Positions 2,687 through 40,088 of a stretch of DNA of 64,000 nucleotides are shown piece after piece. Positions within the stretch are counted from its first letter, which is position 1; every line of letters starts with the position of its first letter. A program made the position numbers and the translations under genes. The stretch is from IMG/VR virus record IMGVR_UViG_3300012932_000063; one strand, 5' to 3'. The DNA comes from a virus. The notes below the pieces were generated by a model that was not told where the DNA came from, searched no databases, and saw only the letters and a list, made by a program, of their open reading frames with translations.

Positions 2687-3478
2687 ATGTCGAGATTAAG
2701 AGTTTTTTTTGATAAATGGACGATAGGTGCCATAATTTTTTCCCTTGTTTCTTTGTTGATAATGTGGCTATATCAGAATTCGAGTAAAGAACTTGAAGTT
2801 ATTACTATCTACAAAACAACGCCGTATTCTCTCAAAGAAAAAACAAAAAACAAAGAAGCAAAAACTCAAACACCTATTCTTTCAGAACAACACAAGGAAA
2901 ACAACCTTAACGATTCCAACACCGATTTGAAATCAGAAGAAGAATCTTTTATTCAGGAAGAGGAAGAACCTTTGTTGGATACGTTTATGGAGGGAATCTT
3001 ATCTTCAACCACAGAGGAAGAATCTGATATAAGGATTTCGCCCTATGGTTTCGGCCCATATCCAAAAATACCAGAGGATTATCCGGGGACAGAACCTGCA
3101 TGGGAAAGTGATCTTGATTCATTAGGTTACTCAGATTCTGATAAAAAGGACGCGGAACTGCTCAGTCGCGTTCTTATCAGATTATGGGTAGATCAAGGTA
3201 TAGGAAGCCGTCTTGGAGGCTCTATTGATGATAGAACAAAAACCGTCTATCCATATTATGAGAACACTATTTACGTGAAAAGAGATGTTTTAAGGAGGGA
3301 TGAAAACGGAAAACCAATATCTTTTTCTGCTCGCATACATGCTCCAGGCAATATAATTATTACGGCGGAAGACTTAGAAATATTTCGCCTTACAGGTGAG
3401 ACCCCGCCTGGAGTCAGGGTCTTACAATTAGAAACTGATGGAATTGATGCTTATCAATTTCTTAACCTCCAACCATAA
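2687..3478 (+). CDS. Membrane-anchored protein, paralogue family A
   Basis: N-terminal anchor FFDKWTIG..; SPYGFGPYPKIPEDYP motif shared with 4587-5345. Confidence 0.85.
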   Translation: MSRLRVFFDKWTIGAIIFSLVSLLIMWLYQNSSKELEVITIYKTTPYSLKEKTKNKEAKTQTPILSEQHKENNLNDSNTDLKSEEESFIQEEEEPLLDTFMEGILSSTTEEESDIRISPYGFGPYPKIPEDYPGTEPAWESDLDSLGYSDSDKKDAELLSRVLIRLWVDQGIGSRLGGSIDDRTKTVYPYYENTIYVKRDVLRRDENGKPISFSARIHAPGNIIITAEDLEIFRLTGETPPGVRVLQLETDGIDAYQFLNLQP

Positions 3479-3489
3479 AGGAAAATTAA

Positions 3490-3915
3490 ATGAACATGAA
3501 AACCATGCTGAAAAGCATTTTTTTGATAGCCCTTACATTTGCGTTAGCTCTTAATTTTACTGGATCTGGCGAAACACAATCACCTAGCGGTGATGTGGCT
3601 GCTTTTGCAAATGCTTGGTCTATTGAGGTGAATAAAGACGAACAAGACAGAAGACAATGGAACGTTTACGCTTCTGCCTCTGCTTATGCTGATTCAACTG
3701 AACATGGTGCTGGTAACAAAGGCAACCTTTCTGTATCCGCGTACGCTTATATGGAAGGCGATTCTAATAGTTTCAAATTTGAAAACGGTGGAAGCGATTC
3801 TATGTCATTTGGTGACGACTACTTATTTCAAGCCAGTGCGTCAGCTGCTGCAAATGTCACTTCTGTTCTTGGGTCAGACTCTTCATCACAACATGCACCT
3901 GATCCAAACAACTAA
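3490..3915 (+). CDS. Secreted Ala/Ser-rich protein
   Basis: Signal peptide, co-oriented after family A gene, terminator follows. Confidence 0.75.
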   Translation: MNMKTMLKSIFLIALTFALALNFTGSGETQSPSGDVAAFANAWSIEVNKDEQDRRQWNVYASASAYADSTEHGAGNKGNLSVSAYAYMEGDSNSFKFENGGSDSMSFGDDYLFQASASAAANVTSVLGSDSSSQHAPDPNN

Positions 3916-3936
3916 TCAGAACGAAATTACTACTTA

Positions 3937-3982
3937 AATCAATGCCAGCCTCTTCGCATTTGTAGAGGCTGGCATTGATTTA
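3937..3982. terminator. Intrinsic terminator hairpin
   Basis: AAATCAATGCCAGCCTCT / AGAGGCTGGCATTGATTT 18-bp inverted repeat. Confidence 0.75.
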
Positions 3983-4289
3983 AGAATCTGAAAGAGAAAA
4001 AACCAGTAAACTTTGAGATAACTTCTGGTGATGTGAAAGGCATACTCAAAAGCAAAGAGTATTTGGTGGCGGTAAAACATTTGGCTATGATTACAAGAAC
4101 AATGAGACAGCGCAAAAAATGGTTAGAGGATTGGCGAAATTATTTACATCAATTCTGCAAGGTAAATTACACAAAATTACCATTAACTAATCAAAAATTC
4201 CTTGTTGAAGTAGGATAAATTCCAATTTAATCACTAATTCTGCACATTTAAGTTGACAAAATTCCGTATATGTTTTACAATATATTTTG

Positions 4290-4361
4290 AGGCGGAGGCG
4301 GGAATCGAACCCGCTCATCCTTGGTTGCAACGCAAGTGTGTTCCCATTTCACCACTCCGCC
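4290..4361 (-). tRNA. tRNA-like gene, anticodon TGC (Ala) on a Cys-like acceptor stem
   Basis: Cloverleaf GGCGGAG/CTCCGCC, T-arm GCGGG TTCGATT CCCGC, loop GT-TGC-AA, U73. Confidence 0.75.
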
Positions 4362-4383
4362 TTAATACCGCTGAATATCTTTA

Positions 4384-4454
4384 TGGAGGCGTGGGGAATC
4401 GAACCCCAATCTTATGGCTCGCAACCAAATGTTTTACCATTAAACTACGCCACC
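4384..4454 (-). tRNA. tRNA-like gene, anticodon GCG (Arg)
   Basis: Cloverleaf GGTGGCG/CGCCTCC, loop TT-GCG-AG, TTCGATT T-loop; one mismatch in each of the acceptor and anticodon stems. Confidence 0.65.
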
Positions 4455-4586
4455 ATATTTTGATGTTCGGCGGTGTTTTAATTCTAACATATTCAACTAA
4501 AAATTTACATCTTAAATCAAAATATGTAACCTATTCTGATATTTTTCGTTAATTCTTAATCAAAACCTCTATTTGGGAGAGAAGTT

Positions 4587-5345
4587 ATGTCTAAATTCAG
4601 GATTTTCTTTGATAAATGGACGATAGGTTTAATAATTTTCTTTTTGGTTTCTGTTCTATTAATGTTTCTGTATATGAATTCGCGTAAGGAACCTGAAGTA
4701 ATTACTATTTACAAGACTACTCCCTATTCTGGCCGTATATCTACGAAAGAGAAAGGTATAAAAGATCAAGAATTTTCTCTTTCAGAACGGCAAGAAGCAA
4801 ATATATTATCTGATTCCGAACACAATATAGAATCAGTCCAACAATCTTTTGCCACTGAAGAGGAAGAATTGTTATTGGACACATTCATGGAAGAATTCTT
4901 ATCTTCAATGACAGAAGAAGGCGAAGGTGTTGATACTCCAGTTTCGCCTTTCGGTTTTGGCGAGTATCCGGACATACCTGCTGATTATCCATGGGATCCG
5001 ATTTGGACACTTGATGATGAATCACGCGCTCATTATTCTCAAGTTCACCCCAACGGAGAACGATTTTTAGAATTAATGGGCAGAGTCGGCATCAAAATGT
5101 GGAATAATGGTTACCGGTTCAAAGGCATTTCTTATTCAGAGGCAACCGGTAAATTTTACTTTAACTTTCCTGACACTGTCTATATTAAATCAGAAGAAAT
5201 AAACGGTGTTACTTCAGTGGAAGTTATTGGCAGCCCAATATCAGAGAAAGATATTGATATAATAAGGAATGGCGGAACACCTCCCGGGATAACCGTATTG
5301 GATATGTCAGAAGGTGTTGAACCTATGAGTTTTCTTGATTTATAA
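4587..5345 (+). CDS. Membrane-anchored protein, paralogue family A
   Basis: Clear homology to 2687-3478. Confidence 0.85.
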   Translation: MSKFRIFFDKWTIGLIIFFLVSVLLMFLYMNSRKEPEVITIYKTTPYSGRISTKEKGIKDQEFSLSERQEANILSDSEHNIESVQQSFATEEEELLLDTFMEEFLSSMTEEGEGVDTPVSPFGFGEYPDIPADYPWDPIWTLDDESRAHYSQVHPNGERFLELMGRVGIKMWNNGYRFKGISYSEATGKFYFNFPDTVYIKSEEINGVTSVEVIGSPISEKDIDIIRNGGTPPGITVLDMSEGVEPMSFLDL

Positions 5346-5373
5346 TCAATAACACCATCGGAGGATATACACA

Positions 5374-5880
5374 ATGTTAGGAAAAATGAAAATCGCATTA
5401 TACGTGATTTTGATTGCGTTATTATGCGTCGCAATTTCAGAATATGCTTCTACCCACACGAACCAAGGACAACTACATGTTACCGTTCATGCTGCTGCCG
5501 GAGTTAATGGACATGGCCAAGATATATTTGGTGAATATACTGAATATTGGACATTCGGAAGCACCGCATTATCTACGCCTACAAGAGTGCACGGCGATAA
5601 TCTTTATATAGGAAGTTGCGATCAAACCATAGTTGTTCCAGGGGCACCTTTTTTCAACCACACTTATTATTTCCAAGGCGAACAATTTTTCACCAAGGTT
5701 TTAAGAGGCTCTTGGAAAGACTATACGGCTCGCAATAACACATCATCAGCAAGCTGCATACAAGAATCTGTGGTTTTCTACAATGATGCTAATGGGCGCA
5801 GAAGAAGATTAGATCATGACCACAGTGCTGATGTAACTATACCACCAGGTGGTTCAAGGGTTAATGAACCTTGGCCATAA
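5374..5880 (+). CDS. Secreted hypothetical protein
   Basis: GGAGGA RBS, signal peptide, terminator at 5906-5942. Confidence 0.75.
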   Translation: MLGKMKIALYVILIALLCVAISEYASTHTNQGQLHVTVHAAAGVNGHGQDIFGEYTEYWTFGSTALSTPTRVHGDNLYIGSCDQTIVVPGAPFFNHTYYFQGEQFFTKVLRGSWKDYTARNNTSSASCIQESVVFYNDANGRRRRLDHDHSADVTIPPGGSRVNEPWP

Positions 5881-5905
5881 TACCAATTTTGACAAAGTGA
5901 AAAAC

Positions 5906-5942
5906 AATTCGAGCCTCGGATCTCTTACAGAGGCTCGAATTA
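5906..5942. terminator. Intrinsic terminator hairpin
   Basis: ATTCGAGCCTC / GAGGCTCGAAT inverted repeat. Confidence 0.65.
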
Positions 5943-5963
5943 TTTAATATACAGGAGATGTGT

Positions 5964-6119
5964 ATGAAAAAACAACTTGTTAAACAGGTGTTGAAATGTA
6001 CTCAATGCGATTTTCAAAAAATTCACGAGGTTTATGACTCTGATATTGAGAGCAAACTCATTGCAGAAGCACGACAGCATGCTAAAGAAACTGAACACTC
6101 TGTAATGGTTCAGTCTTGA
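5964..6119 (+). CDS. 51-aa C2H2-type zinc-finger-like peptide
   Basis: Hand-translated: CTQC..HAKETEH, AGGAG RBS. Confidence 0.6.
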   Translation: MKKQLVKQVLKCTQCDFQKIHEVYDSDIESKLIAEARQHAKETEHSVMVQS

Positions 6120-6242
6120 GATGATAACACCAAGGTGGTGAGTATCATCACTTATCAATATGGAGAAACTGGCTCTGCCATTTTACAAAAACAGAATTAA
6201 ACTGATTTACAAAATTCATGTAATTTGATATAATATATGTTG

Positions 6243-6314
6243 AGGCGTAGGCAGGAATCGAACCTGCTCATGCTCCCTTGCCAAAGAAGTGTGTTCCCAT
6301 TTCACCACTACGCC
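6243..6314 (-). tRNA. tRNA-like gene, anticodon GGC (Ala) on a Cys-like acceptor stem
   Basis: GGCGTAG/CTACGCC, loop TT-GGC-AA, GCAGG TTCGATT CCTGC, U73. Confidence 0.75.
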
Positions 6315-6569
6315 CAGGAAAGTGTGTGTGAATTTATTCACACACACTTTTTCTTAATTTAACATGTTAATTCAATTTTATCAATACTGAAAGTTTGTAA
6401 AGAAGTTAACCCATCTACCAGCTAAACAAATGGTAAATTTATGCACAATGCTACACAGTAGCAAAAGAGGTGTCACTTATCAACATTGCGAAACTGAGGT
6501 TTGATATTTCAGGAAGGTTAAAACAATGATAGTCTCTTCAACAGGACAGAGACTATCATTTTATTATTT

Positions 6570-7835
6570 TTAGGACTTATGCCATTTATACTTACCACCC
6601 GTGCAAGTACCATTGCCTTTTGAACAGTTGGTGTAACTTGCACCACAATTTGAACGCAAACATGGGTGAGGTGTTTCATGCCAAGAAACAGCCGAAGGGT
6701 TACAAGACCAGTAACCATTACCACAACCTGAAGCACATAATTTTACACGATGCTTGTCTGAATGACTCACTTTTACCTTGCAAGCTGTTCGTCCACAATC
6801 CACAAGTTTGGGTTTTGGAGTCGGATTATTACTGGGTGGGGGTGATGACGCTGTACCACCACATGTGCCTGAATTTGAACAAACACATGGCGATGAACAA
6901 TCTGATGTGCAATCCTGACAATTTGGGGTGTTATCAGTCGTCTGTGGCGGCGTGCTACCCGACCAGTGCGTGTTACTTTTTGGACACTTTGAATACTGGC
7001 ATGTGTAATACTCCTCATCACAAGTTGCATTCGGATTCCAAAAATCGTAGATATTTTTCTCACACTTCACATAATGCGGTGAGTTGGCGACGTATTCATA
7101 ATTCCCTTGCCCTCTATTGATGCGTTTCGGTGCATACCTATTGCCACAAGTGCCACCGCAGACAAGCCAATGCTCCGCCGATCGACTGCAAGACCCGGAG
7201 CAAAGATAAAAACGCACACCCGTTGTACCTGAAGAACCATGTTTTTCAGTACAATATACTTGATGTGAAACCTGTGCTAATGATGCTGTTTCAAATCTAG
7301 CATCACAAGAACCTTGACACAAAAATATCGGCGTCGCAGCATATTCCGACGGCTGCTGAATCGAAATCTGCTCTTCGGGACTCAACTGAGGGTGAGAGTT
7401 ATACGCCGCTACAGCATCGTAGTATGCATACCATGCCTTTAGGACTTGATCAATATAGAAGAAAGAGGCTTCATTCCCCGCTGTATCTATCTGTCCTAAC
7501 AGAGTTCTCAGGGTGTCGTTCAAGTAATACGCCGTTATGTTTTTATCAATACCAGCTACAAGGGTACTTGTCCAATCAAAATTCGTATGCAACCTTATAC
7601 CTATCAACTTATTATGTTCTGTAATGAACTTTTGAATCTTACCCTCATAAAAATCGAACTTTGCCTTATAGCGCGGCCACGCACCATGCGGCTCCAAGTA
7701 AAGTGCGTCCTCCTTTTGCTTCATTTCGTTTTCAAGTTGGCGAATAGACTTCTGTTGTGAGACCCCAACCAACGCTATAAAACTACAAAGTAGCACCAGA
7801 AATAAGATGCCGAAAGTCAAATGTTTACGTCGCAT
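6570..7835 (-). CDS. Secreted Cys/His-rich protein
   Basis: Signal peptide MRRKHLTFGILFL..; Cys-rich C-terminal repeats; TAATG overlap with the upstream gene. Confidence 0.8.
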   Translation of the reverse strand: MRRKHLTFGILFLVLLCSFIALVGVSQQKSIRQLENEMKQKEDALYLEPHGAWPRYKAKFDFYEGKIQKFITEHNKLIGIRLHTNFDWTSTLVAGIDKNITAYYLNDTLRTLLGQIDTAGNEASFFYIDQVLKAWYAYYDAVAAYNSHPQLSPEEQISIQQPSEYAATPIFLCQGSCDARFETASLAQVSHQVYCTEKHGSSGTTGVRFYLCSGSCSRSAEHWLVCGGTCGNRYAPKRINRGQGNYEYVANSPHYVKCEKNIYDFWNPNATCDEEYYTCQYSKCPKSNTHWSGSTPPQTTDNTPNCQDCTSDCSSPCVCSNSGTCGGTASSPPPSNNPTPKPKLVDCGRTACKVKVSHSDKHRVKLCASGCGNGYWSCNPSAVSWHETPHPCLRSNCGASYTNCSKGNGTCTGGKYKWHKS

Positions 7836-17417: not shown

Positions 17418-19151
17418 ATGAACAAATTATATTTTGGCGACAATTTAGAAATTATGCGGGAAATGCCATCAGATAGTGTGGACTTGATTTGCACCGATCC
17501 ACCTTTCAACAGCGGGCGCACCTATAACATTTTCCTCGGCGACTCACTCGCACAGAAAAAAGCATTTGGCGATATATGGGTATGGGACGATGCCGCTGAA
17601 GAAACCAGAATGGATATAGACAGCATAAGAAAAGGAAAATCAGATCAATATCGCGCCTTGTCTGACACCCTGAAAGGACTAGACTTCATATTAGCGGATG
17701 GCATTAATGGCCCCGCTGTAAAAGGGAACAAAGGTGCCATGCGATCTTACCTTAATTTTATGGGGCCGCGTTTGGTTGAAATGCACAGATTACTGAAAAA
17801 AACTGGTAGCATATATCTACATTGTGATCCAACAGCGAGTCATTATTTAAAAATTATTATGGATGTCATCTGGGACACTAAAAATCACAGAAAAAATGAT
17901 TATTTTAGAAATGAAATAGTTTGGCATTACTCTGCGGGCAGATCTCCAAACACCGACTTCAAGAAAAAACATGACATTATTCTTAGATATGTTAAAGGAA
18001 AAAATTTTGAATTTAATCAACCTTACATGCCTTATTTAGAAAAAGACAGATTCAGATTTACATTTACTGATGATAAAGGCAGATTATATCGTATAAATTA
18101 TGAAAAAGATAATGATGGTCAATACAAGAAGTTTTATTGGGACACGGGAACACCTGTTGACAGTGTGTGGACATATCTAAGAGGGAAAGAATTAAACCAA
18201 ATCGGGTCTACCAGTAAGGAAAGATTAGGATACCCTACACAAAAACCACGCGAACTATATGAACGCATGATAAAAGCATCAAGTAACGAAGGCGATATAA
18301 TCATGGATCCATTCGCAGGTTGCGGAACTTCTATTGATGCTGCACATACATTAAAACGCAATTGGATTGGAATAGATTTAACTATACTTGCTTTGGATCC
18401 TATGAGTAAACGCCTTAAAGACAGACATGGTCTAGTAAATTATAAGGATTATGAAACTGAGGGGTACCCTACCAATATGCAAGAGGTTAAAAAACTAGTG
18501 AAAAACGAAAAAAGATATAATGATTTTGCTAATTGGGCTGTTACAAGATTAGGTCTTAAACCTACACAAAATGTTAGAGATGGTGGTAAAGATGGTGTAG
18601 GTCAGATAGAAATTTGGGACCCCAAAATAATGAAGTCTATTTCTAAAAGAATGTTGTCCGAAGTTAAAGCCAAGAAAAAACCGACATTAAATGATGTTAG
18701 ATCTTTTTGTCATGTTATGAATAAAGAGGATGCTATTTTGGGTATATTTATCACTATAGAATCCATCAGTAAAAATATGAAACAGGAAGCACAATCTATG
18801 GGAACTTTTGAACACAATGGTGTTAATTATCCAAGGTTACAATTCTGGCAAGTGGATGATAATTATTTCAACAATACTGAGATTATTAATCAAATCATCA
18901 AATTGCCAAGAGAATGGATTAAGGATCCTATACCTAAATCTGACAGACATTTTGAAGATCAACAAGGGGTTTTTGATTGGAACGAAGAAGTTAAAGATCC
19001 TATAGATCCAAGAAATTTAAGCGTTAAAGAGATGGAAACTATGCTCGCAAATGAACAATTGTCTGAACTGCTCCAAATTGTAAAAGAAAGCAATCTGGAT
19101 GAGAAAGAAATGGATGAATTTTGGGAGAAATTGAGACAAGCCGGAGATTAA
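17418..19151 (+). CDS. Site-specific N6/N4 DNA methyltransferase fused to an Mrr-like restriction endonuclease domain
   Basis: GDNL, DPPF, YPTQKP, DPFAGCGT motifs; C-terminal DGGKDG..EVK. Confidence 0.88.
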   Translation: MNKLYFGDNLEIMREMPSDSVDLICTDPPFNSGRTYNIFLGDSLAQKKAFGDIWVWDDAAEETRMDIDSIRKGKSDQYRALSDTLKGLDFILADGINGPAVKGNKGAMRSYLNFMGPRLVEMHRLLKKTGSIYLHCDPTASHYLKIIMDVIWDTKNHRKNDYFRNEIVWHYSAGRSPNTDFKKKHDIILRYVKGKNFEFNQPYMPYLEKDRFRFTFTDDKGRLYRINYEKDNDGQYKKFYWDTGTPVDSVWTYLRGKELNQIGSTSKERLGYPTQKPRELYERMIKASSNEGDIIMDPFAGCGTSIDAAHTLKRNWIGIDLTILALDPMSKRLKDRHGLVNYKDYETEGYPTNMQEVKKLVKNEKRYNDFANWAVTRLGLKPTQNVRDGGKDGVGQIEIWDPKIMKSISKRMLSEVKAKKKPTLNDVRSFCHVMNKEDAILGIFITIESISKNMKQEAQSMGTFEHNGVNYPRLQFWQVDDNYFNNTEIINQIIKLPREWIKDPIPKSDRHFEDQQGVFDWNEEVKDPIDPRNLSVKEMETMLANEQLSELLQIVKESNLDEKEMDEFWEKLRQAGD

Positions 19152-19154
19152 TTT

Positions 19155-19300
19155 AAAAGTATCAGGGAGTTACATCCCTGTAGCGGGTGCTATGGCACAC
19201 CCCATTGTATATACTATATACAATGTTGCCCCACCTGAGTGGGGAATGCTCTCATGAAGAGCAAAGGAATCTCTATGCTTTAGCATGGAGAGGATGTCAA
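19155..19300 (+). ncRNA. Orphan omegaRNA scaffold 3 with intact IS605 right end
   Basis: Core motif plus GGAATC-TCTATGC TTTA GCATGGA-GAGGATG-TCAA. Confidence 0.8.
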
Positions 19301-36676: not shown

Positions 36677-37038
36677 ATGTGGGGGTGACATACTTGAATT
36701 GTTTAAACGTGAGAAGTCTTATTGATACGAAAATCGCGTCCTTTTCAGGGCAAGGCGATGTTGTTTTTAGAGAAATTAAAATTTTTTTTGATAAAAACGA
36801 AAAAGTAGTCTTATCATTCAAAGATATGGAATTGATAACACCTACTTTTTTAAATGCCGCTATAGGTCAACTCTATGGTATATATCCGAGACATAAAATA
36901 AAAGAATTATTATCTGTAGATGATATAGAAGATGATGACCTATATATTATCAAAAGAGTAGTAGATAACGCTATAGAGTTTTTCAAAAGGAGAAATGTAT
37001 ATGAAAGAAATCAAATTCCCTCTCAAGATAATCAATAA
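36667..37038 (+). CDS. STAS-like (DUF4325) protein
   Basis: VVLSFKDMELITPTFLNAAIGQLY..IKRVVDNA. Confidence 0.75.
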   Translation: MGINVGVTYLNCLNVRSLIDTKIASFSGQGDVVFREIKIFFDKNEKVVLSFKDMELITPTFLNAAIGQLYGIYPRHKIKELLSVDDIEDDDLYIIKRVVDNAIEFFKRRNVYERNQIPSQDNQ

Positions 37039-37101
37039 TATTAAAATCGATATAGAAGAAACCGTATCAAAAGAAGAAGCTATAAAACGGGTAAATGTTA
37101 T
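37001..37101 (+). pseudogene. 5' part of a small ORF interrupted by the TnpB element (3' part at 40069-40090)
   Basis: Joining 37101 to 40069 gives MKEIKFPL..KRVNVIEIGVIE-stop, with ATGA overlap to the next gene. Confidence 0.65.
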
Positions 37102-37223
37102 CAAAGTCTTCCATTTCAAAACTCCATGCTTTAGCTTGGAGATGTAGAAATGGCGCAGGGCGTGTTTCATGGAACTGGACTTGGTATGATAAAAAACATA
37201 GCCAAGCCCAATCTTTTTGCAGG

Positions 37224-37520
37224 TTACACTGCCTTCCATTTTCTGCCTATTCTTACAACTTTTCTTCGTTCAAGTAATCTAAACAGTGATTCTCTGACGG
37301 TAAGGTTGTAAGGTGCTGTTGGGTGCGTATCCAATTTTGTGGGTATAGACAATCTCAATGTAATCTCACCTTGGGTGAGACACTGATTCCATTTTCCTTT
37401 AACTTCTAACAACACTTCCAAAACCGCAGAATCAAGAATTAATAACGCTATTTCCGATTTAATCTGCGGATCCATATTCATAAACAAATCATAATCGGCG
37501 TTATCCAAGGGCTGTTTCAT
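37224..37520 (-). CDS. Winged-helix-like hypothetical protein (cargo)
   Basis: AGGAG RBS; helical body ending in VVRIGRKWK hairpin. Confidence 0.65.
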   Translation of the reverse strand: MKQPLDNADYDLFMNMDPQIKSEIALLILDSAVLEVLLEVKGKWNQCLTQGEITLRLSIPTKLDTHPTAPYNLTVRESLFRLLERRKVVRIGRKWKAV

Positions 37521-37657
37521 TTCAACAGTTCTCCTATAATGCACTTGTATATTAACAATTTTCGCGCGTTAATCATTGACTAAATACGCGAAAAATGCTA
37601 ATATACAAGTTAGGTTAAGTTACATTTAAGTTGCAAGTACAAAACACTTGTAACTTC

Positions 37658-37719
37658 AAGGCAGCTGATTGCCAAGAATTGTTGGTTCTTGGGCGGGGTT
37701 TAATTCCCCGCTTGCCTTT
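37658..37719 (+). ncRNA. D-arm-less tRNA-like RNA
   Basis: AAGGCAG/TTGCCTT stem, CCAAGAA-TTGTTGG-TTCTTGG arm, GCGGGG-TTTAATT-CCCCGC T-arm; promoter TTGACT-17-TAATAT at 37576-37604. Confidence 0.55.
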
Positions 37720-37827
37720 TTCTACAAAAAATTCTACAATATTTGTGGATTTTTCGCAATACTGAAAGTTTAATAAGTGAATATATGGTAGGTAATTGGG
37801 CGATCTGTTTGGATCGTCTATTTTAAT

Positions 37828-37856
37828 TTGACATGCTATTGTAAATCGCGTATAAT
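37828..37856 (+). promoter_or_regulatory. Consensus sigma70 promoter
   Basis: TTGACA-17-TATAAT. Confidence 0.75.
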
Positions 37857-38018
37857 AGTATTTGTGAAAGGGAGGCAAGGATTGCCGTCCATACCTCCCG
37901 ATGCTAATTTTCAGGAATATGGCTGTTTTTGTGGAGTCGCCAGCAAGTCCCCGAAAAAGAAAAGTTAGAATAACCACTTGGGGTGCAATGAAACGGAAAT
38001 AAAAGAGGTGTGTAAAAT

Positions 38019-38120
38019 ATGGAAGGGAATTTTGGGTATGTTTTACTAGTATTTAATGTGATTAACACAATTATACTTCTTTACGTGCTTAAGTTAACAA
38101 AAGACGAAAAAGACGAATAA
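38019..38120 (+). CDS. 33-aa single-TM peptide
   Basis: Hand-translated MEGNFGYVLLVFNVINTIILLYVLKLTKDEKDE; GAGGTG RBS. Confidence 0.6.
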   Translation: MEGNFGYVLLVFNVINTIILLYVLKLTKDEKDE

Positions 38121-38344
38121 AAGTGTTTCTGACCCTAATTCTGAAAAAGTGATATTGAAAACGAAAATCTGAATTACTTAAAGAATGGATTAATACTGGA
38201 GGATGGTAATTTTTTAGAATTTTCATTTTAACTGGATTAACTCTTGAAAATGCGTTAAAATTGAATTAAGTTGTCGTAAATTCAGGTCAGTGTCACGACA
38301 CACTGACCTGAAAAATATCAATACGTTATTTTTAGGAGTTAATT

Positions 38345-38584
38345 ATGTTGAACCAATCACGTACCGATATATCTGTTACTAAAGAATTGCAGAAAATTTC
38401 ATATATTTTCCAGCAATTCCAGCAACAAGAAAAAGCATTTAGAGAAATTGAAAAGATTCTTTCAAGACCTCTCGCTATTTCGCAGATTGAATCCTCTTCC
38501 CGCAAAACAAACGAAAAAATTGTTGAAATGCATAGGAAAAGGATAGAATATTGCTTGAAAATTGGATTCTCACCTTTTCTTTAA
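38345..38584 (+). CDS. Hypothetical protein (cargo)
   Basis: AGGAG RBS. Confidence 0.6.
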   Translation: MLNQSRTDISVTKELQKISYIFQQFQQQEKAFREIEKILSRPLAISQIESSSRKTNEKIVEMHRKRIEYCLKIGFSPFL

Positions 38585-38652
38585 TAACGGCTATATTTTA
38601 CAATAAATCTGGATTGGTGTCAAGTGTAATGCGGTACCAAGCCAGATTTTTG

Positions 38653-38779
38653 TTGACAAAAATATGTAATTGTGATATTATATGTTTTACCAGTTTGGCA
38701 GGCATTGTTAGCTTTGCCGCAAGGCATTGTGCCTGCCTCCCACTAACAAGGGGATAATCAAACTGGCACTGGTAATTCC
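38653..38779 (+). promoter_or_regulatory. Promoter and pseudoknotted 5' leader of tnpB copy 2
   Basis: TTGACA-17-TATTAT, then three-way junction with 7-bp loop-loop complementarity. Confidence 0.55.
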
Positions 38780-40003
38780 ATGAGATTAGTAAGAACCAAA
38801 AGGCTTAAGATACAAAGGCAATCTATCTTTTCTGAGATTAATGCCGCGTCTGCTGATGTATGGCGTGAATGCTGTGATTTGATGGATATGTATCAGTGGC
38901 GGCGTGGTTATGGTCATGCTCACATGGATTTCTATATTGGTGAGGATTGTGAGGGTTGGGTGGATAAGAATTTGTCTAAGTCTCAGCCTTTACATTCTCA
39001 GAGTATACAGGCGGTGCGTGCCTCATATTTTAAATCTTGGGCGTCCTATGCAGTGCTTAAGAAAACAGGTGGCATCAGGAAACCTAAACCGCCTAATAAG
39101 AAAAAGAAATATCGTACCACCCACTGGAAGAAGTCCGCCATCAGATTTTATGAAAGTGGATTATTAGGCAAACGCGTTCTGCTTTCTATGGGTGCCGGCA
39201 GACCAAGATTAGATATAAAGCTGCCAAAAAACTTTGATATGTCCACAAATCATTTGATTGCAACTATTGAGTTGGTCTATGATTATGGGCAATGGGAGTT
39301 ACATTTCACATATTATGAAACTATAGAGAAGCCAGAAGCTGGTAATGGTGTTATAGGTATTGATTTGGGTGAGGTTCATCCGATGGTATGTTTTGATGGT
39401 CAAGTTGCTCTAATTTTTAATGGACGCTATATCCGCTCGCTATATCGCCTTAGAAATAAAGTTCTTGCAGGATTCAATGCTGCCATTAGTAAATGTCAAC
39501 GCCATTCCAAACGCTGGTGGAAGCTAACGCGTCGCAAGTGGAAGCGCATCAGAAGGATAGATAATCAAATCAAGGACGGCTTACACAAACACACGCGAAA
39601 GTTAATGGATGAATGTGAGGTAAGAGGTATTGGGACCGTTGTTGTTGGTAATTTGACGGGCATCCGCGATCATATAGATTACGGCAAAAAGTCAAATCAA
39701 AAACTGCATCAGTGGCCCTTCGCTAAGTTGATAAACATGATAACCTACAAAGCAAAAGCATTAGGTATCAAAGTGAAACATATCAACGAGGCATATACCT
39801 CCCAAACTTGCCCGAAATGCGGCAATAGAAAGAAACCTAATAAACGTGAGTATAAATGTAAGTGTGGTTTCACATATCATCGTGATGGTGTGGGCGCAAT
39901 CAATATAAGACAAAAGTATCTGGGATGCCTCGGTGTCCCCGTAGTGGCGCACATGGCGGCGCCCCAGGGCTTCAGATTAGAAGTCCCGGTTGCCTTGACT
40001 TAA
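38780..40003 (+). CDS. tnpB: TnpB (IS200/IS605-family RNA-guided endonuclease), copy 2
   Basis: GIDLG, VVVGNL, INEAYTSQTCPKCG, HRDGVGAINI. Confidence 0.93.
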   Translation: MRLVRTKRLKIQRQSIFSEINAASADVWRECCDLMDMYQWRRGYGHAHMDFYIGEDCEGWVDKNLSKSQPLHSQSIQAVRASYFKSWASYAVLKKTGGIRKPKPPNKKKKYRTTHWKKSAIRFYESGLLGKRVLLSMGAGRPRLDIKLPKNFDMSTNHLIATIELVYDYGQWELHFTYYETIEKPEAGNGVIGIDLGEVHPMVCFDGQVALIFNGRYIRSLYRLRNKVLAGFNAAISKCQRHSKRWWKLTRRKWKRIRRIDNQIKDGLHKHTRKLMDECEVRGIGTVVVGNLTGIRDHIDYGKKSNQKLHQWPFAKLINMITYKAKALGIKVKHINEAYTSQTCPKCGNRKKPNKREYKCKCGFTYHRDGVGAINIRQKYLGCLGVPVVAHMAAPQGFRLEVPVALT

Positions 40004-40088
40004 CAATCAAGGAATGTTCCTACAAGGAACAAAAGGAATCTCCAGTCTTTAGACTGGAGAGGGTTCAAAGAAATAGGAGTTATTGAAT
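39912..40088 (+). ncRNA. omegaRNA (reRNA) of tnpB copy 2; predicted guide AGAAATAGGAGTTATTGAAT
   Basis: Overlaps tnpB 3' end; GAAT-hairpin-TCAA right end as in IS608/ISDra2. Confidence 0.75.

Follow-up and report, generated by a model that had tools for sequence, protein, structure and literature searches.

The 64-kb window analysed here (64,000 nucleotides from the IMG/VR virus record IMGVR_UViG_3300012932_000063, to which coordinates refer unless a locus is named) is part of a 95-kb Joint Genome Institute (JGI) metagenome contig and carries, at positions 37102-40068, a discrete element of 2,967 bases with ends of the IS200/IS605 (IS608-like) type. We consider it very probable that this is a non-autonomous IS605-type element originating from Candidatus Poribacteria, inserted 3' of the tetranucleotide TTAT in a small phage open reading frame (ORF) and carrying a partly eroded passenger cassette of its host. 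What is new is a Y1-type family with a defined multi-gene and non-coding RNA (ncRNA) passenger cassette, exact boundaries and one reduced copy inside a phage. Neither the element nor the rest of the window was found to contain tnpA, which makes this copy non-autonomous, and its sequence identifies 37102-40068 as a tnpA-less IS200/IS605 element built around a tnpB gene, here termed tnpB2.

The left end (37102-37215, +) begins with C37102, directly after the TTAT at 37098-37101 (+), which represents the insertion motif on the 5' flank and the predicted transposon-adjacent motif (TAM). It comprises AAAA at 37118-37121 (+17 to +20), a hairpin at 37122-37141 with an 8-bp stem containing one mismatch, and a conserved extension with a second hairpin, the extension being common to five other loci (L010, L012, L013, L026 and L032); over 52 nt, this end is 96% identical to that of the host copy L002. 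The right end consists of GAAT at 40036-40039, a hairpin with a perfect 8-bp stem at 40040-40059, and the terminal TCAA at 40065-40068. Both ends are subterminal imperfect palindromes, with no terminal inverted repeats. The motif common to the two hairpins was matched five times in the window, against 0.04 expected (three places with both strands counted, the third being 19271-19290), and the hairpins recur in 20 or more host copies with compensatory changes in their stems. At the level of sequence, AAAA pairs with TTAT and GAAT with TCAA, and both pairings are conserved across the family.

The insertion rule was derived from 22 independent left ends, namely that of the window and those of 21 Candidatus Poribacteria loci. 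All 22 are preceded by TTAT and begin with C, while every right end terminates at TCAA and is followed by a variable base; family copies with matching ends sit in different flanks. The joined flanks of L002 align without gaps to four related genomes (L062-L064 and L066), with no target duplication. With a slash marking the junction, the empty site reads ..GAATTTAT/TGA.. (..TTTAT/TGA..) in three of them and ..GAATGTAT/TGG.. (..TGTAT/TGG..) in the fourth. These four real empty sites, free of duplication, prove the boundaries for the family.

The window itself is phage-like, encoding a portal protein, a primase, an NAD-dependent ligase, a helicase, several methylases and many small co-directional genes, and the host lineage of this phage is probably Candidatus Poribacteria, which are sponge symbionts. 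The insertion splits a small phage ORF (36995-37147, +), and the DUF1828 gene, whose ATG lies at 40087, is located to the right of the element. When 37101 is joined to 40069, the ORF starting at 36995 runs for eight more codons (..KRVNVI-EIGVIE-stop) and its TGA overlaps the DUF1828 ATG, giving by reconstruction the window's own empty site, ..GTTAT/AGAAATAGG... In a related phage fragment (L005, approximately 72% identical), the DUF4325 and DUF1828 genes abut with neither element nor cargo between them, which agrees with insertion of the whole unit; since L005 also lacks the small target ORF, it does not represent an empty allele. An earlier note on this DNA had proposed the boundaries with their IS608-like ends, TTAT as the insertion motif, the restored ORF and the absence of tnpA: each feature was recovered at the proposed position, the rule extended to the 22 left ends and the four L002 empty sites, joining the flanks reproduced the start-stop overlap, and tblastn with two host TnpA proteins revealed no tnpA homologue in the window.

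The exactness of these junctions also bears on a technical explanation, according to which reads from a multi-copy host insertion sequence (IS) were misjoined into a phage contig. The window does derive from a metagenome contig, and Poribacteria genomes obtained from samples of this kind are rich in the IS family. Nevertheless, both junctions fall precisely at the TTAT and TCAA boundaries of the family, removal of the element restores a phage ORF with its start-stop overlap, and the copy is unique, being 82-88% identical to its nearest host counterparts. An assembly chimera was rejected on the two exact junctions, and an artefact of this kind is extremely improbable.

The origin of the element is indicated by its relatives. 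TnpB2 has more than 1,300 of them, the closest of which (85-92% identity) are all found in Candidatus Poribacteria. Canonical host copies (L002, L004, L016-L018, L021, L025 and L033) measure 1.40-1.54 kb, with 120-240 bp from the left end to tnpB, and the phage copy exceeds them by an interval of approximately 1.5 kb. By BLAST, 37098-37942 and 38158-38683 are 82-83% identical to the Poribacteria chromosomal locus L010, from the left end through the tnpB promoter, although the L010 left end occupies a different TTAT site from that of the window. The L010 element (3037-6424, -) spans 3.4 kb including both ends, the right one terminating at TCAA, and contains the complete cargo cassette together with an omega RNA-like scaffold. 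It has neither tnpB nor tnpA and is a cargo carrier for which TnpB and TnpA would have to be supplied in trans. At two further loci, L012 and L013, the same left end and the gene for a winged helix-turn-helix (wHTH)-like protein lie at other TTAT sites, with compensatory changes in the hairpin, and in L012 a tnpB follows 5.3 kb away in matching orientation, past two unrelated IS insertions. Two Poribacteria chromosomes carry more distantly related, autonomous elements of 5.0-5.3 kb with the same ends (L026:954-6256 and L031:1249-6254), arranged as left end, small minus-strand ORF, tnpA (PF01797), a dockerin protein with an HExxH motif, small ORFs, tnpB and right end; their dockerin protein is 48% identical to that of L010. 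In these two loci, the HExxH protein is secreted, 360-552 aa long and has a C-terminal dockerin, and the small ORFs encode membrane proteins.

The full host cassette comprises a divergent wHTH-like gene, a structured small RNA, a secreted HExxH/dockerin gene, a lipoprotein-like gene and an ORF of approximately 76 aa. Passenger DNA is found at independent sites, with both ends surrounding homologous cargo in the window and in L010, and with the left end and the wHTH gene in L012 and L013. On this comparative evidence, the DNA between the left end and tnpB is genuine cargo, which moves together with the ends and is found at three or more different TTAT sites. The family as a whole is one with a passenger region and with autonomous, tnpB-only and omega RNA-only derivatives, from which, judging by the distribution of its closest relatives, an element came from Poribacteria into the phage.

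Two other origins of the interval were considered and rejected. Capture of the cargo from phage DNA is contradicted by the homology of the cargo, including its left-end junction, to host elements, and fusion of two elements is contradicted by L012, which has the same order of left end, wHTH gene and tnpB, and by L010, which shares the tnpB promoter.

Further variation was observed around the same ends in host genomes. In L032, the slot adjoining the left end holds a different minus-strand gene of 128 aa (4219-4605), and the tnpB (4830-6223) is frameshifted. In L003, an IS630-type (DDE_3) transposase gene (6325-7479) lies between tnpB and the right end, stretching that host element to 2.7 kb. 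The closest relative of TnpB2 (92% identical; L014:1-754) has no left end within the 754 nt upstream, where the contig ends; the space is occupied by small unrelated ORFs that have a promoter and terminators of their own and may represent another cargo variant.

Within the phage copy, the cargo can be followed from the left end to tnpB2. The first gene (37224-37520, -) is an ORF read towards the left end and encodes a 98-aa protein, probably a winged-helix DNA-binding protein, whose host homologues are 75-86% identical. The ratio of non-synonymous to synonymous substitution rates (dN/dS) of this gene is 0.16-0.22, a value which, like that of tnpB2 below, averages over the host lineage too. Neither this protein nor the 79-aa ORF described below matched Pfam or PHROGs; atlas features of the 98-aa protein point towards wHTH families, which serves as a lead only. 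Next to the gene lies a divergent promoter region within a long inverted repeat (37545-37610), conserved in L010 and identified from sequence as a candidate operator, with a promoter-like site at 37576-37604. It is followed by a structured small RNA (37611-37725, +) with a terminator-like hairpin at 37690-37714 and a T-run. Compared with L010, this RNA shows compensatory changes in its outer stem and middle arm and no change in one hairpin and the T-run. Neither ARAGORN nor Rfam called it a tRNA, and neither the cargo RNAs nor the omega RNA matched any Rfam family.

A consensus promoter (TTGACA-17-TATAAT, 37828-37856) with its 5' leader (37828-37942, +) remains from the deleted dockerin-protein cassette, this segment having homologues in L010, L026 and L031, where they precede the dockerin-protein gene. 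Relative to L010, approximately 1.15 kb with that gene, the most conserved of the cassette, is deleted from the phage copy and replaced by 12 bp (37943-37954), leaving a stub of the last 16 or so codons of the HExxH/dockerin protein gene (37955-38002, +). The remains of a 136-aa lipoprotein-like gene (38004-38209, +) consist of a 33-aa transmembrane (TM) peptide ORF (38019-38120) and a C-terminal stub ending at 38209. A 79-aa ORF (38345-38584, +) with a hairpin 3' of it is 72% identical to the 76-aa ORF of L010 and has a dN/dS of 0.46. The wHTH-like gene, the 79-aa ORF, tnpB2, the tnpB promoter and leader, the RNA at 37611-37725, the omega RNA and both ends are intact.

By comparison with the host loci, the phage copy is an eroded version of the host passenger cassette, in which the TM peptide and the promoter at 37828-37856 are remnants of two mostly deleted host cargo genes. 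The earlier note's description of the interval as cargo has accordingly to be amended: the cargo does travel with the ends at three or more TTAT sites, whereas the tRNA-like RNA is not a tRNA by ARAGORN or Rfam, and the TM peptide and one of the promoters are vestiges. Nor is the payload built by the phage: it is an eroded copy of the passenger cassette of a Poribacteria IS family, with the dockerin gene deleted.

The apparatus for RNA-guided cleavage follows the cargo. The tnpB promoter (TTGACA-17-TATTAT with a TG extension) and a structured leader occupy 38653-38779 (+) and are the same in canonical host copies; tnpB2 (38780-40003, +) encodes 407 aa with the Pfam domains PF01385 (OrfB_IS605) and PF07282 (Cas12f1-like_TNB) and has a dN/dS of 0.07-0.10. 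Together with the values for the wHTH gene, this indicates purifying selection on both genes. Residues D195, E337 and D369 and the zinc-finger cysteines (CxxC..CxC) are invariant in TnpB2 and 16 aligned relatives. An omega RNA scaffold (39912-40068, +) overlaps the 3' end of tnpB and the right end: compensatory changes affect 15 of its 30 predicted pairs in an alignment of 20 right-end sequences, to which the window copy conforms. From their sequences, TnpB2, the omega RNA and the wHTH gene all look functional.

According to the published rule, the guide is the right flank of the element. Since the element ends with TCAA, the 16-20 nt from 40069 are predicted to serve as the guide, as the earlier note had it. 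The predicted guide and target (40069-40088, +) covers the ribosome site and the start of the DUF1828 gene. Within the window, the target sequence is matched at the occupied site alone; TCAA stands before it in place of TTAT, so that this site would not be cut.

These parts suggest how the element may have arrived and how it might persist. A host Y1 TnpA acting in trans would move it by single-strand 'peel and paste' transposition. We infer this supply from the existence of autonomous host relatives with the same ends (L026 and L031); a tnpA in trans, for which the earlier note had advised looking, was not detected in the window, and those relatives encode a PF01797 TnpA. TnpB2 and its omega RNA, with the right-flank guide and TTAT as the TAM, would then cut element-free copies of the site, and repair from an occupied copy would keep or spread the whole element, cargo included. 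Homing and retention by TnpB on chromosomes have been published, as has TnpA-independent spread of IS605 through plasmid populations (Mears et al., 10.1101/2025.02.20.638934). For phages, the literature offers the proposal that such elements home into co-infecting genomes. The wHTH protein would serve as the element's own repressor at the inverted repeat, and by analogy with Arc, discussed below, it may repress the divergent promoters at 37545-37610.

Whether such activity matters to the phage was weighed between two readings of the same locus. In the first, an active RNA-guided gene drive operates in the phage population, TnpB2 cutting element-free co-infecting relatives and recombination copying a useful payload of several genes and ncRNA. 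The parts that this would need (TAM, guide, omega RNA, promoter and a tnpB under selection) are present and apparently intact, the occupied site is protected by TCAA in place of TTAT, and precedents exist in the TnpB-driven spread of IS605 through plasmids without TnpA and in the homing proposed for phage co-infection. Set against this are the lack of any empty allele or polymorphism in the collections searched, the absence of the target from the only related phage fragment (L005), the reduction of two cargo genes to stubs and the non-canonical catalytic site of TnpB2, and we judge an active drive unlikely. The truncation of the dockerin and lipoprotein genes argues, in particular, against selection for the payload as a whole.

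In the second reading, the element is a dead end: a host IS made one hop by means of host TnpA during infection and is now a decaying passenger, neutral or of slight cost, whose TnpB has no activity of consequence for the phage. The internal cargo deletions and the lack of tnpA in the window favour this, as do relics in the same phage (a second tnpB gene, tnpB1, without ends, and orphan scaffolds at 13569-13688, 14150-14241 and 19155-19300) that show repeated acquisition and decay. On the other hand, no damage is seen in tnpB2 and its promoter, in the omega RNA, in either end or in the wHTH gene, and dN/dS is 0.07-0.22, though averaged over the host lineage too; the dead end is possible, if rather unlikely. 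A broader form of the drive, in which a Poribacteria IS605 lineage serves as a compact transposon platform, TnpB and omega RNA copy a multi-gene and ncRNA cassette between sister chromosomes and co-infecting phages, L010-type carriers borrow TnpB and the wHTH protein acts as a self-repressor, is doubtful.

Empty alleles were sought in several collections. Scans of IMG/VR with the DUF1828 protein, TnpB2 and the ligase returned no empty allele and no close phage relative, and a degenerate pattern of the empty site had no match there; a scan of JGI metagenomes returned nothing beyond relatives at 26-36% identity. Neither of the flanking genes led by exact-protein look-up to an empty allele or a close relative, blastn against INPHARED phages yielded no close relative, and look-ups of public sequencing runs listed none. 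The search of related sequences advised in the earlier note thus ended with L005 alone, which is free of the element and of its target alike. As no empty allele or close phage relative was found, RNA-guided cargo homing between phages remains a step that we infer; spread between phages is plausible.

Several observations weigh against the interpretation of the locus as a mobile, TnpB-assisted cargo element, and are considered together here. In the collections searched, there was no empty allele of the phage site and no second phage copy. In the 64-kb window, tblastn with two host TnpA proteins detected no tnpA homologue (best E = 2). A search of 61 genomes for an empty site orthologous to that of the cargo-bearing L010 yielded none, and the wHTH cargo is rare, occurring in two of the 151 related genomes searched. 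The AlphaFold2 (AF2) model of the 98-aa protein is poor, with a predicted local distance difference test (pLDDT) score of 47; it consists of helices followed by a C-terminal beta-hairpin and does not establish a wHTH fold. In TnpB2, the position of the canonical RuvC-II glutamate is occupied by G290, as it is by glycine in all 16 aligned relatives, while the alternative Glu337 is invariant, and residue 291 is asparagine where approximately 87% of the relatives checked have aspartate. TnpB2 therefore belongs to the rearranged RuvC-II class and is predicted to be active without being canonical, a prediction that draws on the structural argument in the literature that this class acts via the alternative glutamate (Altae-Tran et al., PMC10691335). 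N291 was also considered as a phage-specific inactivating change and rejected, since it is common to 11 of 88 relatives, host copies included.

The window holds further traces of the same family. The tnpB1 gene (10302-11483) encodes a protein that shares 58% identity with TnpB2 and 78% with the TnpB of L031, the autonomous element with tnpA and dockerin cargo; it has neither transposon ends nor an omega RNA in cis, and a consensus promoter lies 3' of its stop codon. Omega RNA scaffolds without an adjacent tnpB occur at 13569-13688, 14150-14241, 14749-14765 and 19155-19300. The last of these lies 3' of a methylase/Mrr-fusion gene (17418-19151) and has a complete right end (hairpin at 19271-19290, then ..TCAA). 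In sequence, the orphan scaffolds are nearer to those of tnpB1-like host genes than to the tnpB2 scaffold, and tnpB1 may use them in trans. The region 13693-14740 is a tandem duplication with units of approximately 560-600 bp, each combining a promoter and an omega RNA scaffold with ORFs that overlap and lie on both strands. A 96-nt 'tRNA-Met' called by ARAGORN at 13616-13711 (-) overlies an orphan omega RNA scaffold and is probably a false positive, because Rfam calls no tRNA there.

These traces raise the possibility that the phage has domesticated TnpB2 and TnpB1 as RNA-guided nucleases or repressors with stand-alone omega RNAs, directed against competitors or used for gene control, the transposon ends being incidental. 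Three to four orphan scaffolds do fit the RNA structure of the family, tnpB1 is without an omega RNA of its own, and the literature describes both TnpB repressors without nuclease activity and arrays of omega RNAs. Yet the tnpB2 copy still has its two transposon ends and its guide in the usual position, it shares its catalytic triad pattern with mobile host copies, and the orphan scaffolds are of the tnpB1 type by sequence and not of the tnpB2 type, all of which renders domestication improbable.

As a non-autonomous IS605-type element with host cargo, the window copy can be compared with well-characterised systems. In IS608 from Helicobacter pylori, the tetranucleotide pairs are AAAG/TTAC on the left and GAAT/TCAA on the right. 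The right cleavage site TCAA and the GAAT located 5' of the hairpin are thus identical here, while the left guide tetranucleotide co-varies with the target (AAAA/TTAT). The family also resembles IS608 and ISDra2 in having subterminal hairpins instead of inverted repeats, insertion 3' of a tetranucleotide without duplication, an omega RNA overlapping the 3' end of tnpB, and the right flank as guide. Unlike these elements, the window copy has no tnpA, has a left end separated from tnpB by approximately 1.5 kb of passenger DNA, resides in a phage, and encodes a TnpB with a rearranged RuvC-II (glycine at the canonical glutamate position and the alternative Glu337).

Elements with tnpB and no tnpA are the norm, omega RNA-only palindrome-associated transposable elements (PATEs) are known, and phage-borne tnpB has been reported in the literature. 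The tnpB-only IS605 elements and omega RNA-bearing PATEs (Meers et al., 10.1101/2023.03.14.532601) likewise have no tnpA and need TnpA in trans, and derivatives of the present family that hold ends and omega RNA only (L010 and the orphan scaffolds of the window) parallel the PATEs. In contrast to the elements of Meers et al., which have no extra protein genes, the tnpB-only and omega RNA-only forms described here carry a multi-gene cassette. Cargo associated with TnpB of IS200/IS605/IS607 has been described as rare and previously unknown, with some branches encoding an additional HTH protein (Altae-Tran et al., 2023; PMC10691335). The example named there belongs to a serine-recombinase branch (Ser-3) with helicase or WhiA-like cargo, whereas the present family is of the Y1 type, with a cassette of dockerin-protein, lipoprotein, small-RNA and wHTH components, several derivative forms and a phage copy.

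The TnpB drive of plasmids (Mears et al., 10.1101/2025.02.20.638934) and 'non-restorative homing' (PMC13565253) share with the element the predicted TnpA-independent targeting of element-free replicon copies; the former differs in having been demonstrated for plasmids and a plain IS, whereas phage and cargo are involved here. Arc, a ribbon-helix-helix (RHH) repressor of IS605 (Moon et al., 10.64898/2026.09.24.754181), is similar to the wHTH-like protein in being a small DNA-binding accessory protein in a transposon near strong intergenic promoters. The wHTH-like protein is a predicted winged helix and not an RHH, with no sequence relationship to Arc, and its proposed function follows by analogy.

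Members of IS200/IS605 are usually treated as minimal insertion sequences. Within one family, the present series extends from tnpA with cargo and tnpB, through tnpB with cargo and omega RNA with cargo, to plain tnpB copies, and its defined sequences make it testable whether single-strand Y1 transposition tolerates 1.5-4 kb of passenger DNA, and whether cleavage by TnpB can spread the cargo linked to it through a replicon that exists in many copies, for instance a phage. If true, the cargo drive would represent in nature what engineered cargo gene drives do and would parallel the gene drive demonstrated in plasmids in 2025; even if the element is only a decaying passenger, it would still illustrate cleanly how an IS passes from host to phage in an uncultured sponge symbiont.

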